This document shows, piece after piece, positions 7,523 to 11,131 of a stretch of DNA of 50,509 bases; within the stretch, counting starts at the first letter, position 1; every line of letters starts with the position of its first letter. The DNA is from Escherichia phage PhiR11_1_star, in the sequence record PV340548.1, one strand, 5' to 3'. A program made the position numbers and the translations under genes. A model generated the notes under the pieces. The model did not search any database. It saw nothing but the letters and a program-made list of their open reading frames with translations, and had not been told where the DNA came from.

Positions 7523-7795
7523 TCATCTCGCCGTCAGTTGTTTTGATTTCCGGTAGCCTGCCGCGTAAAGAGCTACGTTCGGAAGACAAGTTGAACCTTC
7601 ATATTTTCTGGTCAACGTTGTCAGAGTTATCACTTCTGCTCTCATTGCTGGTTTGCGCTTGCATTGCAAGACCACTCGTGAAGGGGTTGGCCTGTGTAGC
7701 TTGTCGGAGCTGATCGCCTCCTGACTTTGCAGATTTGCGCGACGAGCTCTACGGCGAGAAGCTGCGGTGCCTTTAAATTCTGTTTTTCTGGACAT
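7523..7795 (-). CDS. N: N-family transcription antiterminator (not lambda N; phage 21/P22-like)
   Basis: 90-aa ORF from the ATG at 7795 with GGAGG 6-7 nt upstream; arginine-rich motif KGTAASRRRARRANL near the N-terminus; sits at the N position downstream of nutL. Confidence 0.7.
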   Translation of the reverse strand: MSRKTEFKGTAASRRRARRANLQSQEAISSDKLHRPTPSRVVLQCKRKPAMRAEVITLTTLTRKYEGSTCLPNVALYAAGYRKSKQLTAR

Positions 7796-7893
7796 GGATT
7801 CCTCCCGAATAAACTTTGGCGATGCAATCTCGAAGCTCCTCCTGAGACGGTTGCTTCGGCATTGCATCCCACAGCTTATGTGGTTGGGTGATC

Positions 7894-7939
7894 TGGCTTT
7901 TCAGCCACGTAGTCGAGAGTCGACGTTGTTTAAAGAGCC
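7894..7939 (-). promoter_or_regulatory. nutL-like site: boxB hairpin (GGCUGAAAAGCC) with an upstream boxA-like GCTCTTTA
   Basis: Minus-strand reading of 7894-7907 gives a short GC stem with a GAAAA loop; boxA-like element at 7932-7939. Confidence 0.5.
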
Positions 7940-7949
7940 TGCCAGTCTG

Positions 7950-8030
7950 TTCCATTTGGCTTCCAGCGTCCTGCTGACGGTTAAATAGTACGATATGTAC
8001 TTTACAAGATCAATACAATTTGTTGTAAGT
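7950..8030 (-). promoter_or_regulatory. pL/OL region with two operator-like 15-bp sites (7987-8001 AGTACGATATGTACT; 8012-8026 AATACAATTTGTTGT)
   Basis: Partially palindromic sites related to a site in the cI-cro intergenic region; a TTGATC-17 nt-TACTAT promoter-like pair on the minus strand. Confidence 0.45.
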
Positions 8031-8199
8031 TGGCGTGGTTTTTTATAACGCTTTGTATTTAATAGTGTTGTTTTTTAGCGTGGATGTATTGCCTCGGCGA
8101 TGTAAGGAGAGATCAGAATTGCGTGGTTTAGTGGGTTGTATCTATTTATTTTTCAATAAATACAATTGGTTATGTGTTTTTAGGTGGGGCGATCGTGAG

Positions 8200-8229
8200 G
8201 CAAAGAAAACCCGGCGCTGAGGCCGGGTT
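8200..8229 (-). terminator. rho-independent terminator at the end of the cI/rexA-like/rexB-like operon
   Basis: GC hairpin AACCCGGC-GCTGAG-GCCGGGTT followed on the minus strand by a T-run; overlaps the rexB-like stop codon. Confidence 0.6.
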
Positions 8230-8719
8230 ATTGTTGCTTGAGTTTTTCGTTATAAATCTGTTTCAGCTTTATTGGTATGAAAAAAGAGCATCCAAATGAA
8301 ATTATGCTTAGCCAGCATATAATAAACTCAAGTGCCAGACTCAGGTTGGTCACAGGCGGCTTGCTTGCTAAGATTTTACTGGTGTCTCCTGGTGGCAGCA
8401 GCATGTAGTAGAAGAATATTAAGCACAAGACTGTAAGATAGAGGTAAAAAAGCATCATGTAACGAGAAAACCGAATTTCGAATTTCCTCTTAGTTGCATA
8501 CTTTTCTGATCTTGATTTACCTTCTGTAAACGATGCTACGTCTCCACTTGTGGTTATAACAAGTAACAGAAACCCTGTTAATATTGAAAATATATTTGCC
8601 ACAAGTCCAAGCAACTCTTTGTTATATCTAACCTTATCATGTAAATAATAAGTTAATACAAGAGAAAGGCAGATAAAAAAGATTATGGAAAAAATATAAC
8701 TCCAATCTTTACCTCTCAT
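8228..8719 (-). CDS. RexB-like polytopic membrane protein (immunity-region exclusion module, distal gene)
   Basis: 163-aa ORF with several hydrophobic helices (IFSIIFFICLSLVLTYYL, ILTGFLLLVITT, LYLTVLCLIFFYYMLL, FIICWLSIISFGCSFFIPI), AT-rich, at the lambda rexB position. Confidence 0.55.
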   Translation of the reverse strand: MRGKDWSYIFSIIFFICLSLVLTYYLHDKVRYNKELLGLVANIFSILTGFLLLVITTSGDVASFTEGKSRSEKYATKRKFEIRFSRYMMLFYLYLTVLCLIFFYYMLLPPGDTSKILASKPPVTNLSLALEFIICWLSIISFGCSFFIPIKLKQIYNEKLKQQ

Positions 8720-8756
8720 TCACACCTCCCCCTTTGGTTATACGTACGACCCTCCA

Positions 8757-9614
8757 TTATAGTATGAAATCCTTGAAGTGCTCAAGAATTTCCTTAGCGT
8801 GTTCCGCTTTTATGGTGGTAGAGCCATACTTTCTTGTGTAATAATCTTTTTTTGTTTTGATTTCAGAGCTTTTGATCGCTTGGCCTTTTGATGTTGTGAT
8901 GAAGAACTCTTCCGATAATTCATCAATGATCAGGCTTGGATTTTTGTTCGCAATATTTAAGAGTTTTGGGTTATGTCTCTTGTCAAGAGTCAGAAGCCCA
9001 TAGAAAGAGTTGTCATCATCTTGCTCTTTCTCAAATAATCTTGACAAAGCTTCTTTAGCTTTTCCAGTGATACCTAATGATGTTGCTTTTGCCTCTTCTA
9101 GATCTTCTTTTGTTGTTTCAATACTTAGGCTGATGGAGCGTATTCCATCTTTTATTATCTTGCCAAGTGCATCTTTGTTGAGTTTCTCAGAAATATTCAC
9201 ATTGATATTCATGAGGCTAAATATTTTTTTTAACTTAGATAAAGGATGAGTTCCTGATAGTTGAAAAATTGTTAGAATATTGCTTTCTGTTGCAAGCAAG
9301 AATATATGGCATTTATCATAATTATCTACATCCTGCAAATCGTTATGGTCTCCATCTTTTGGAGTTACCGGGACCAAAGCTTTGGGCTCATAGAGTGTTA
9401 TCCCAGCAAAGATTTGGTCATCGTTAACTATTAGACTTTTTATCCTTGCCCGAGTGTCGTTAGAGTACTCAAAGTCATAGTTTTGTTTGAAATTTTCGCA
9501 TGTCTTCAAGACATCTACAAATGAGCATCCGTCATTACAATCTACTTCAAATAGCGAAGTTTGTACTTTTTTGGGGAAATCTTTATTTTTTTCTTCCGAA
9601 AAATTCATTGGCAA
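8757..9614 (-). CDS. RexA-like cytoplasmic protein (immunity-region exclusion module, proximal gene)
   Basis: 285-aa AT-rich ORF immediately downstream of cI on the same strand, size close to lambda RexA (279 aa) but clearly different sequence. Confidence 0.5.
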   Translation of the reverse strand: MPMNFSEEKNKDFPKKVQTSLFEVDCNDGCSFVDVLKTCENFKQNYDFEYSNDTRARIKSLIVNDDQIFAGITLYEPKALVPVTPKDGDHNDLQDVDNYDKCHIFLLATESNILTIFQLSGTHPLSKLKKIFSLMNINVNISEKLNKDALGKIIKDGIRSISLSIETTKEDLEEAKATSLGITGKAKEALSRLFEKEQDDDNSFYGLLTLDKRHNPKLLNIANKNPSLIIDELSEEFFITTSKGQAIKSSEIKTKKDYYTRKYGSTTIKAEHAKEILEHFKDFIL

Positions 9615-9707
9615 TCCTTATTTTTTAATAAATGATTTTCAGTAAATTAATCAGTAAGTTGTTTAGCATAGGGTATGTGCGCTTTTGATAAATTACATGC
9701 AGTCACA

Positions 9708-10367
9708 TCACCCAAACGTCTCTTCAGGCCACTGACTAGCGATAACTTTCCCCACAACGGAACAACTCTCATTGCATGGGATCATTGGGTATTGTGGGTT
9801 TAGTGGCTGTAGAAACACCTGACCGCTATCCCTGATCAGTTTCTTGAAGGTAAACTCATCACCACCAAGTCTGGCTATACAGAAATCGCCTGGCTCAACA
9901 GCCTGCTCAGGGTCAACCAGAATTAACATCCCGTCAGGAAAGCTGGGCTTGGAACCTGTTGGTGCGGTCATTGAGTTACCTTCAACCTCAAGCCAGAATG
10001 CAGAGTCACTGGCTTTTTTGGTTGTGCTTACCAATCTCTCCGCATCGCCTTTGGTAAAGGTTCTGAGTTCTGGAGAGAACATCCCAGCCTGAACATGAGA
10101 AAAAACAGGGTACTCATATTGTTTTTTAACTGGGGCCGATGAGTATTCGCCAACAGGTGAAAATGTCCCGTCGTGGTTGAATGATATGTTATCAATACCA
10201 AGGTATTTAAACACCACTCCAATATCACTAAGAGATGGATGACGAGATCCGCGCAACCAGTGTCCAATCCCACCCTGCGTCATACCTAGCTCTTCGGCTA
10301 ACTTCTCTTGAGTTATGCCGAGCTCTTTCATTCTGGATCTAGCCAGTTCATACCATTTCATTTTCAT
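9708..10367 (-). CDS. cI: CI repressor, hybrid: non-lambda HTH N-terminal domain and lambda-type C-terminal autocleavage domain
   Basis: C-terminus [27 protein letters not shown]...[12 protein letters not shown] matches lambda CI; N-terminus [40 protein letters not shown] does not; start taken at the Met at 10367 (the ORF could extend to 10409). Confidence 0.85.
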
Positions 10368-10477
10368 GTTCTTATTATTACGCTTTGTACTGGAACCATC
10401 CATGCACAATGTGTATTTTTACTTGTATTCTTAAAGTACATATTGTATTTTTTATTCGTGTTTACTATGGAGGGCAT
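10368..10477. promoter_or_regulatory. OR operator/promoter region (pRM and pR) between divergent cI and cro
   Basis: Divergent intergenic region with an operator-like site at 10435-10449 (AGTACATATTGTATT) related to the OL sites. Confidence 0.5.
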
Positions 10478-10693
10478 ATGAGCAACCTACGAAAATATCG
10501 AGAGTCACTGAATATCTCTCAAACAACACTTGCTAAGGCAGTTGGATGCACACAGGGAGCTATCGGACATTGGGAATCTGGTCGTCGCTTCCCAGACCTT
10601 AAAACATGCCGTGCTCTTGTTGCGTGCCTAAACAAGTTAGGCGCAAAAGTCAGTCTTGATGACGTGTTCCCGCCGGAACACAAAGCCGCTTAA
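10478..10693 (+). CDS. cro: Cro-like HTH repressor (non-lambda immunity type)
   Basis: 71-aa ORF MSNLRKYRESLNISQTTLAKAVGCTQGAIGHWESGRRFPDL; GGAGGG 5 nt upstream of the ATG; its HTH shares a GxIGHW motif with the cI N-terminus. Confidence 0.8.
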   Translation: MSNLRKYRESLNISQTTLAKAVGCTQGAIGHWESGRRFPDLKTCRALVACLNKLGAKVSLDDVFPPEHKAA

Positions 10694-10703
10694 TAAGCGG
10701 ATC

Positions 10704-10749
10704 CGCTCTTTGTAACAACGGACATTCGTCCTACGTCGCTGAAAAGCGA
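10704..10749 (+). promoter_or_regulatory. nutR-like site: boxA (CGCTCTTT) and boxB hairpin (TCGCTGAAAAGCGA)
   Basis: boxA consensus at 10704-10711 and a 4-bp stem with a GAAAA-type loop at 10736-10749, downstream of cro. Confidence 0.6.
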
Positions 10750-10834
10750 GTTCCAAGATATCTGACCAACTAAGGCCATATGCGTTTCCACGCATACCTT
10801 TCAACTAACTATTCACTATTGGAAATCTTAAGAA

Positions 10835-11131
10835 ATGGAAAGAACAAGTTACAGCAAACTATCACAGCGTGAAGTTGATCGCGCAGAAACAGATTTACTT
10901 ATCAATCTGTCAGCTATTACCCAGCGCGGTCTGGCAAAGATGATTGGCTGTCATGAATCGAAGATAAGCAGAACGGATTGGAGATTTATTGCTTCGGTCT
11001 TGTGTGCTTTCGGAATGGCATCAGACATCAGTCCGATTAGCAGGGCTTTTAAGTATGCGCTTGATGGACTCACCAATAAAAAACGCCCGGCGGCAACCGA
11101 GCGTTCTGAACAAATCCAGATGGAATTCTGA
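10835..11131 (+). CDS. cII: CII transcriptional activator, hybrid (non-lambda N-terminus, lambda-type C-terminus)
   Basis: 98-aa ORF ending TNKKRPAATERSEQIQMEF as in lambda CII; the N-terminal two thirds differ from lambda. Confidence 0.8.
   Translation: MERTSYSKLSQREVDRAETDLLINLSAITQRGLAKMIGCHESKISRTDWRFIASVLCAFGMASDISPISRAFKYALDGLTNKKRPAATERSEQIQMEF
11046..11122 (-). ncRNA. oop: OOP antisense RNA
   Basis: Minus-strand sequence TTGATCCAGTAATGACCTCAGAATTCCATCTGGATTTGTTCAGAACGCTCGGTTGCCGCCGGGCGTTTTTTATT is near-identical to lambda OOP RNA including its terminator hairpin and U-run; overlaps the cII 3' end. Confidence 0.8.

Follow-up and report, generated by a model that had tools for sequence, protein, structure and literature searches.

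The early-control (immunity) region of Escherichia phage PhiR11_1_star, which occupies positions 7523-11131 of the 50,509-nucleotide stretch analysed here (record PV340548.1; hereafter the window), is very probably complete and is that of a lambda-like temperate coliphage with the immunity specificity of phage VT2-Sakai. The immunity type, the six operators and the lambda-like C-terminus of the repressor are already published, and the phage has already been sequenced. The sole fresh element is an unannotated two-gene cargo, orf283 and orf163, at the position that rexAB occupies in lambda. We read this cargo as a Rex-like module, although neither gene belongs to the RexA or RexB sequence family (PF15969 and PF15968).

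A probable VT2-Sakai-type genetic switch

The region contains the components of a lambdoid CI/Cro switch, namely a repressor with a helix-turn-helix (HTH) and an S24 domain, a divergent cro gene and two tripartite operators, and its gene order matches that of the lambda immunity region. It shares with VT2-Sakai (Sp5; AP000363) the DNA-binding domain of cI, Cro and the operators, three of them exactly and three with one mismatch. The resemblance takes in N, nutL, OL1-3, cI, OR1-3, cro and nutR at 93-96% DNA identity (93.5% over 7523-8229 and 95.6% over 9710-11171), the N and Cro proteins being identical in the two phages, and it includes the junction in the cI linker to a lambda-type C-terminal domain. 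VT2-Sakai differs in having its own non-lambda cII tail, HK022-like O and P genes, a different cargo between N and cI, and a stop codon within the HTH of the deposited cI.

To locate operators, we scored every 15-mer of the window against the motif A(G/A)TAC-N5-GTA(C/T)T. Only two sites in the 50.5 kb match at 10/10 positions, 7987-8001 (OL1) and 10435-10449 (OR1), and additional matches of at least 8/10 in control DNA start at 8012, 8045, 10377 and 10403. These six matches in 150 bp of control DNA compare with 0.19 expected (Poisson P ~5e-8); the three sites that had no part in defining the motif give P ~1e-3. All six coincide with the published 17-bp VT2-Sakai operators (Table S1 of PMC10742460). 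An earlier note on this DNA, made by a model from the sequence alone, had pointed to three related operator-like sites, at 7987-8001, 8012-8026 and 10435-10449. These are OL1, OL2 and OR1, and their 15-bp motif is the true operator core, but the full set numbers six, the motif search having added OL3, OR2 and OR3.

The tripartite OR (10376-10450) separates the divergent cro and cI genes, where PRM presumably runs leftward and PR rightward, and the tripartite OL (7986-8060) lies at a presumed PL on the minus strand that would overlap OL1 and OL2. In an alignment of the window, VT2-Sakai and phage Dewey, the half-sites are conserved, and the spacers between operators together with the central N5 hold most of the substitutions. 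A lone half-site, TTGTATT (10423-10429), sits at the presumed -35 of PR, where OL2 sits relative to PL. We considered a fourth operator between OR1 and OR2 (10418-10434) and rejected it, as only this half-site is present. A further 8/10 match at 8159-8173 (AATACAATTGGTTAT), in the lambda-like block between OL3 and the terminator and away from the promoters, is probably a chance occurrence.

Pfam recognizes both parts of the repressor, HTH_3 (E 2e-10) at the N-terminus and Peptidase_S24 (E 1e-28) at the C-terminus. The N-terminal domain is that of VT2-Sakai except for the stop codon in the Sakai record, which replaces Gln31 of the HTH (AP000363, ~4157-4159; GMT*GGIG) and explains why only a 169-residue C-terminal fragment of cI is annotated there. 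Repressors of this type are found in dozens of Shiga toxin (Stx) and non-Stx phages. Cro is 100% identical to VT2-Sakai Cro (72/72), and its recognition helix, TQGAIGHW, is nearly that of cI, TQGGIGHW; the common motif TQG(G/A)IGHW is consistent with cI and Cro reading the same sites.

The start of cI is probably misplaced in the annotation. The annotated ATG at 10403 falls within OR2. Another ATG, at 10367, is 9 bp away from the OR3 edge (in lambda the distance is 11 bp); AATAAT occupies -13 to -8, and a poor -35 abuts OR2, a geometry that fits the leaderless PRM transcript of lambda. Within 10368-10400, all six differences between the window and Dewey are nonsynonymous in the annotated cI frame, and the sequence is almost invariant downstream of 10367. 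We therefore favour a 219-residue cI that starts with MKMKWYEL at 10367, which would make the annotated start 12 codons too long.

These features suggest a switch built around a LexA-type repressor in which a non-lambda HTH domain is linked to a lambda-type domain for oligomerization and self-cleavage. Such a repressor would bind the six 17-bp operators, three at OL and three at OR, through the core motif given above, thereby closing PL and PR and regulating its own leaderless PRM transcript. Cro, with its near-identical recognition helix, would compete for the same sites, and N would act at nutL and nutR, both organized as in H-19B (boxA, spacer hairpin, boxB) but with a GAAA tetraloop.

Several points weigh against this picture. 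A consensus promoter scan flagged none of PR, PL and PRM, and manual assignments of their hexamers reach only ~7/12. The centre-to-centre distances are 32 bp for OR1-OR2 and 26 bp for OR2-OR3 as against 25 bp for OL1-OL2 and 33 bp for OL2-OL3, and with OR1-OR2 and OL1-OL2 so differently spaced, cooperative pairing may be unlike that in lambda. Finally, in the literature consulted (PMC10742460) the operators are sequence predictions that were tested with lambda CI and not with the cognate repressor.

Two intragenic junctions of different age

The earlier note placed recombination junctions inside cI and cII, with N, the cI DNA-binding domain and cro of non-lambda origin. A blastn comparison of the window with lambda 34000-41000 bears this out: lambda-like DNA is confined to four blocks (Table 1), the remainder between them has no resemblance to lambda, and for N, the cI N-terminal domain, cro and nutR no similarity to lambda was detected. 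Both the cI C-terminal segment and the cII segment are lambda-like at the DNA level, and together with a sliding comparison the alignment places the junctions in the cI linker at ~10118 and in cII at ~11069. Both are thus intragenic, and at the junctions identity to lambda drops from ~95-98% to undetectable within a few bases. Another junction lies at 10703, beyond which the segment from nutR to cII is 94-95% identical to H-19B and ~90% to HK97.

In cI, identity to lambda starts at Tyr101 (lambda numbering), in the interdomain linker and 10 residues before the Ala111-Gly112 cleavage site. Over 137 codons we counted 20 synonymous differences and one nonsynonymous difference, W129L, which leaves both the Ala-Gly site and the Ser/Lys dyad intact. 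The same note had called the C-terminal parts of cI and cII lambda-identical; this is exact for the cII tail, but at the DNA level the cI domain is only ~95% identical. Residues 1-78 of cII are of the H-19B/HK97/VT2-Sakai type and the last 20 (79-98) are identical to lambda, the best-matching parent in a 30-column sliding comparison switching at 11066-11070, cII residue 78/79. We placed oop by homology, from its coordinates in lambda. The switch falls just beyond the oop terminator, so that the lambda block begins precisely at the end of the antisense oop RNA. The cII junction joins the immunity module to a lambda-type oop/O/P/ren module (98.3% identical to lambda).

The two junctions differ in age. 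That in the cI linker is also present in VT2-Sakai, in Dewey and in ~60 other records, which makes it common to the VT2-Sakai immunity group as a whole, and the ~5% divergence of the domain from lambda is nearly all synonymous, as expected for an old shared module and not for a recent import. The hybrid repressor is thus the standard VT2-Sakai-type cI, an old and widespread allele that is not peculiar to PhiR11_1_star. By contrast, the cII junction is absent from VT2-Sakai, H-19B and HK97, which carry a different tail on the same cII body, and only this cII/oop junction is peculiar to the present phage lineage. Dewey (PQ850600, 2429-4136) combines the same cI, cro and operators (~88-94% identity) with lambda-type N and nut, and its N-cI interval is free of cargo, which shows that immunity core, N/nut module and cargo slot reassort independently.

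That lambdoid immunity regions are mosaics joined at domain boundaries is textbook knowledge, and mosaicism of this kind is the norm for lambdoid phages. The immunity region of VT2-Sakai was reportedly analysed by Fattah et al. in 2000 (Genes Genet Syst 75:223). According to PMC10742460, that study described the C-terminus of VT2-Sakai cI as lambda-like and its N-terminus as unlike lambda, and the central point of our finding is therefore already published.

Could the pattern have arisen without discrete crossovers, by vertical descent with stronger purifying selection on the cI C-terminus and the cII tail? The cI C-terminal domain is indeed under strong purifying selection (20 synonymous changes to one nonsynonymous), and the cII tail is doubly constrained because it overlaps oop. 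However, synonymous sites are conserved in the lambda-like parts, and DNA identity falls from ~95-98% to undetectable within a few bases; moreover, the same cII body bears a different tail in VT2-Sakai, H-19B and HK97, and the same cI C-terminal domain occurs on unrelated N-terminal domains in lambda and HK97 on the one hand and PhiR11_1_star on the other. We consider this explanation very unlikely. Still more improbable is that both junctions stem from one recent cross between lambda and a VT2-Sakai-like phage, with the repressor a new hybrid unique to PhiR11_1_star. The 98.3% identity of O, P and ren to lambda would suit such a cross, but the cI junction is found unchanged in VT2-Sakai, Dewey and ~60 other records, and the identity of the cI C-terminal domain to lambda is only 94.9%, the replication block reaching 98.3%; the junctions are therefore of different ages.

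Two orphan genes in the rexAB slot

The earlier note overlooked the two genes between N and cI. From the cI stop, with homology to lambda ending at 9707, to the final two codons of the gene downstream, where homology resumes at 8236, orf283 and orf163 replace lambda rexA and rexB. The lambda-like block at 8107-8236 includes a terminator at 8208-8229, found in a scan for terminator-like hairpins, that in lambda follows rexB. The gap between cI and orf283 is 99 bp long and has no terminator-like site, the terminator after orf163 is shared, and we infer that both genes lie inside the cI operon. A promoter-like sequence, TTGAGC-18-TATAAT (10/12; 8756-8785, minus strand), lies at the 3' end of orf283 and precedes orf163 by 37 bp, a placement that recalls the internal lambda promoter that transcribes rexB alone.

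In the rexA position, orf283 (the A component) is predicted to adopt the two-domain RexA/RdgC fold. In the rexB position, orf163 (the B component) is a membrane protein with four transmembrane (TM) segments, its hydrophobic stretches lying at nearly the same positions as those of RexB. Lambda RexAB is thus alike in consisting of two genes placed between cI and the same terminator, and in pairing a ~280-residue first protein of RexA/RdgC fold (predicted for orf283) with a small 4-TM second protein, but unlike in sequence and profile for both components. BLASTP of orf283 and orf163 against RexA and RexB was negative, as was hhalign against RexA and RexB families built here (probabilities 0.3% and 0.1%) and a profile search of PDB sequences for a link between the cargo and RexA or RexB. 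Neither gene matches Pfam, PADLOC or NCBIfam, and in PHROGs orf283 matches only phrog_23561, of unknown function. A Foldseek search of the orf163 model against BFVD returned no significant match and no RexB. The best BFVD matches of orf283 and orf163 stem from one and the same virus. Our literature search found nothing on the family.

The family is rare: we found 16 clusters in a set of 5.8 billion proteins and 18 representatives in one of 1.84 billion. The cassette is present in 7 of 5,426 complete E. coli genomes and, among 50,697 phage records, in 2G7b and PhiR11_1 only. Nevertheless, the pairing of an A protein with a 4-TM B protein is conserved where identity between A proteins is as low as ~22%, and it recurs in six distinct genomic settings; the B proteins are homologous. 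Three contexts, the window included, are directly downstream of an S24 repressor, like rexAB; the other two are a Budvicia prophage and a locus (L013) in which the membrane partner is missing. Elsewhere, the Xenorhabdus genes neighbour an integrase and P2-type tail genes, those of Morganella follow tail genes, those of L016 separate Q from the holins, and those of L014 are in a chromosomal setting. Other phages with VT2-Sakai immunity fill the same slot with a DUF1828 gene (ev207), an NYN-domain gene (2B8), orf22 (VT2-Sakai) or nothing (Dewey).

By the predicted fold of A, the topology of B, gene order and position, orf283/orf163 would form a Rex-like module. We give an even chance to a fuller interpretation in which they represent an unrecognized, sequence-orphan branch of Rex-type prophage exclusion, with a RexA/RdgC-fold sensor and a 4-TM effector that lysogens would express from the repressor operon and that would move between prophage hotspots of Enterobacterales. 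Alternatively, the cargo may have nothing to do with exclusion and instead be an RdgC-like modulator of recombination or induction whose membrane-protein neighbour is unrelated, or a moron with some other role. The absence of sequence or profile similarity to RexA and RexB, together with the distant homologue at L013 that lacks a membrane partner, leans this way, and lambda RexA itself biases the switch independently of RexB (PMC11077077). Against it stand a pairing kept down to 22% identity and in six contexts, a position directly behind an S24 repressor in three contexts, as for rexAB, and the size, order, topology and slot of the two genes, which all mirror rexAB. We regard this alternative as an appreciable possibility, if a doubtful one.

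RexA/RdgC-fold genes just left of cI in lambdoid phages have been noted before (PMC12315714). The RdgC homologues described there are like orf283 in lying directly downstream of cI, but they are recognizable as such, whereas orf283 is picked up by none of the Pfam, NCBIfam and PADLOC models and has a conserved 4-TM partner.

A tetraloop variant of the N/nut system

The N protein is 100% identical to that of VT2-Sakai and ~57% identical to that of H-19B and HK97, and carries an arginine-rich motif; boxA and boxB are present in both early operons. The earlier note described GAAAA-loop boxB hairpins. That string is there, but the structure differs: both boxB sequences fold as a 5-bp stem with a U-A closing pair and a 4-base GAAA loop, one base shorter than in lambda. 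The sequence GCTGAAAAGC has exactly two copies in the window against 0.14 expected, one in nutL (7896-7905, minus) and one in nutR (10738-10747, plus). Neither nut site thus has the pentaloop with one extruded base that is seen in lambda (GAAAA/GAAGA) or in P22 and H-19B (GACAA). The nutL site is identical in VT2-Sakai. The nutR region (10703-10834) is 94-95% identical to the H-19B/HK97 nutR besides the loop, where GAAA differs from the GACAA of H-19B by deletion of a single base, the loop C, in otherwise 94% identical DNA. Its anatomy agrees with that of the H-19B nutR, described as having "two hairpins" (PMC3526286).

The change of loop accompanies a different arginine-rich motif in N, SRKTEFKGTAASRRRARRA here and TRRTQFKGNSRSRRRERLKA in H-19B. 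We also observed that the loop tracks the type of N: GAAA at both nut sites with VT2-Sakai N (this window and VT2-Sakai), GACAA with H-19B/HK97 N, and GAAAA/GAAGA with lambda N (lambda and Dewey). With H-19B and HK97 the present phage shares boxA, spacer hairpin and boxB at nutR, an identical N C-terminus and a cII body of 83-84% identity; the arginine-rich motif and middle region of N differ, the N here is 37 residues shorter, and the GACAA loop of H-19B/HK97 is GAAA at both nut sites. These comparisons suggest a loop-length variant that works like the lambda-type N/nut system, in which VT2-Sakai-type N would recognize a genuine GNRA tetraloop boxB without an extruded base. A literature search for a natural tetraloop boxB found nothing specific.

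Source, gene order and feature coordinates

Over positions 7300-11400 the window is 100% identical to two Escherichia phages, 2G7b (LR595866/NC_049954) and PhiR11_1 (PV340547); a literature search for either found nothing specific. All of this region is present as a prophage in 7 of the 5,426 complete E. coli genomes. The first 695 bases of the window (1-695) equal its last 695 (49815-50509), which makes it the record of a 49,814-bp genome, circular or permuted, that includes an overlap. PhiR11_1_star is without stx and has a replication module of the lambda type. From lambda it further differs in that the cI DNA-binding domain, cro, operator sequence, N and nut sites are unrelated, rexAB is replaced, and the boxB pentaloop gives way to the tetraloop; alike are the tripartite operators, the distance from ATG to OR3, which suits a leaderless cI transcript, the terminator behind the rex slot, the cI C-terminal domain (one residue differs), the cII tail, oop, O, P and ren. 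Gene order was taken from the deposited PhiR11_1 annotation, Pfam and the list of open reading frames (ORFs).

Table 1. Genes, control sites and lambda-like blocks in and around the immunity region of PhiR11_1_star (window coordinates).
Feature	Position	Strand	Description or basis
sieB	6925-7506	plus	gene order
N	7523-7795	minus	antiterminator, 90 residues, VT2-Sakai type; Pfam N_peptide PF25694, E 3e-32
N, alternative annotation	to 7867	minus	longer ORF, 114 residues
orf163	8228-8719	minus	hypothetical gene
orf283	8757-9608	minus	hypothetical gene
cI	9708-10403 as annotated; 9708-10367 if ATG 10367 is used	minus	repressor; 219 residues from ATG 10367
cro	10478-10693	plus	71 residues, HTH_3 type; Pfam
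cII	10835-11131	plus	98 residues; Pfam Phage_CII
O	from 11164		gene order
nutL	7894-7939	minus	boxA 7926-7939 (GGCTCTTTAAACAA), spacer hairpin 7912-7924, boxB 7894-7907 (UGGCU-GAAA-AGCCA)
nutR	10704-10749	plus	boxA 10704-10718 (CGCTCTTTGTAACAA), spacer hairpin 10720-10731, boxB 10736-10749 (UCGCU-GAAA-AGCGA)
OL1	7986-8002		exact match to published VT2-Sakai site
OL2	8011-8027		one mismatch to published VT2-Sakai site
OL3	8044-8060		one mismatch to published VT2-Sakai site
OR3	10376-10392		one mismatch to published VT2-Sakai site
OR2	10402-10418		exact match to published VT2-Sakai site
OR1	10434-10450		exact match to published VT2-Sakai site
oop antisense RNA	11077-11153	minus	homology to lambda (98% block)
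oop terminator	11107-11080	minus	terminator scan
po-like promoter	11189-11161	minus	promoter scan
lambda-like block	6479-6904		lambda 34055-34480, 97.4%; ral region
lambda-like block	8107-8236	minus	lambda 35708-35833, 91.5%; ends in last rexB codons, with terminator
lambda-like block	9707-10118		lambda 37226-37637, 94.9%; cI C-terminal domain
lambda-like block	11069-13478		lambda 38591-41000, 98.3%; cII tail, oop, O, P, ren

Implications

Assignment to the VT2-Sakai immunity group would predict homoimmunity with many Stx2 prophages, and for annotation the start of cI should probably move from 10403 to 10367. Among the elements that might repay experiment, the orphan Rex-like cargo comes first and the tetraloop boxB variant second. 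In the lambda model, an extruded base of the boxB loop is needed to recruit NusA; if VT2-Sakai-type N does recognize a tetraloop, it would provide a natural test of that model. The part most worth bringing to the bench is the cargo, a rare two-gene module with a predicted RexA-like fold that PADLOC, Pfam and NCBIfam all fail to detect. Should it exclude phages, the Rex family would extend well beyond the reach of sequence searches.

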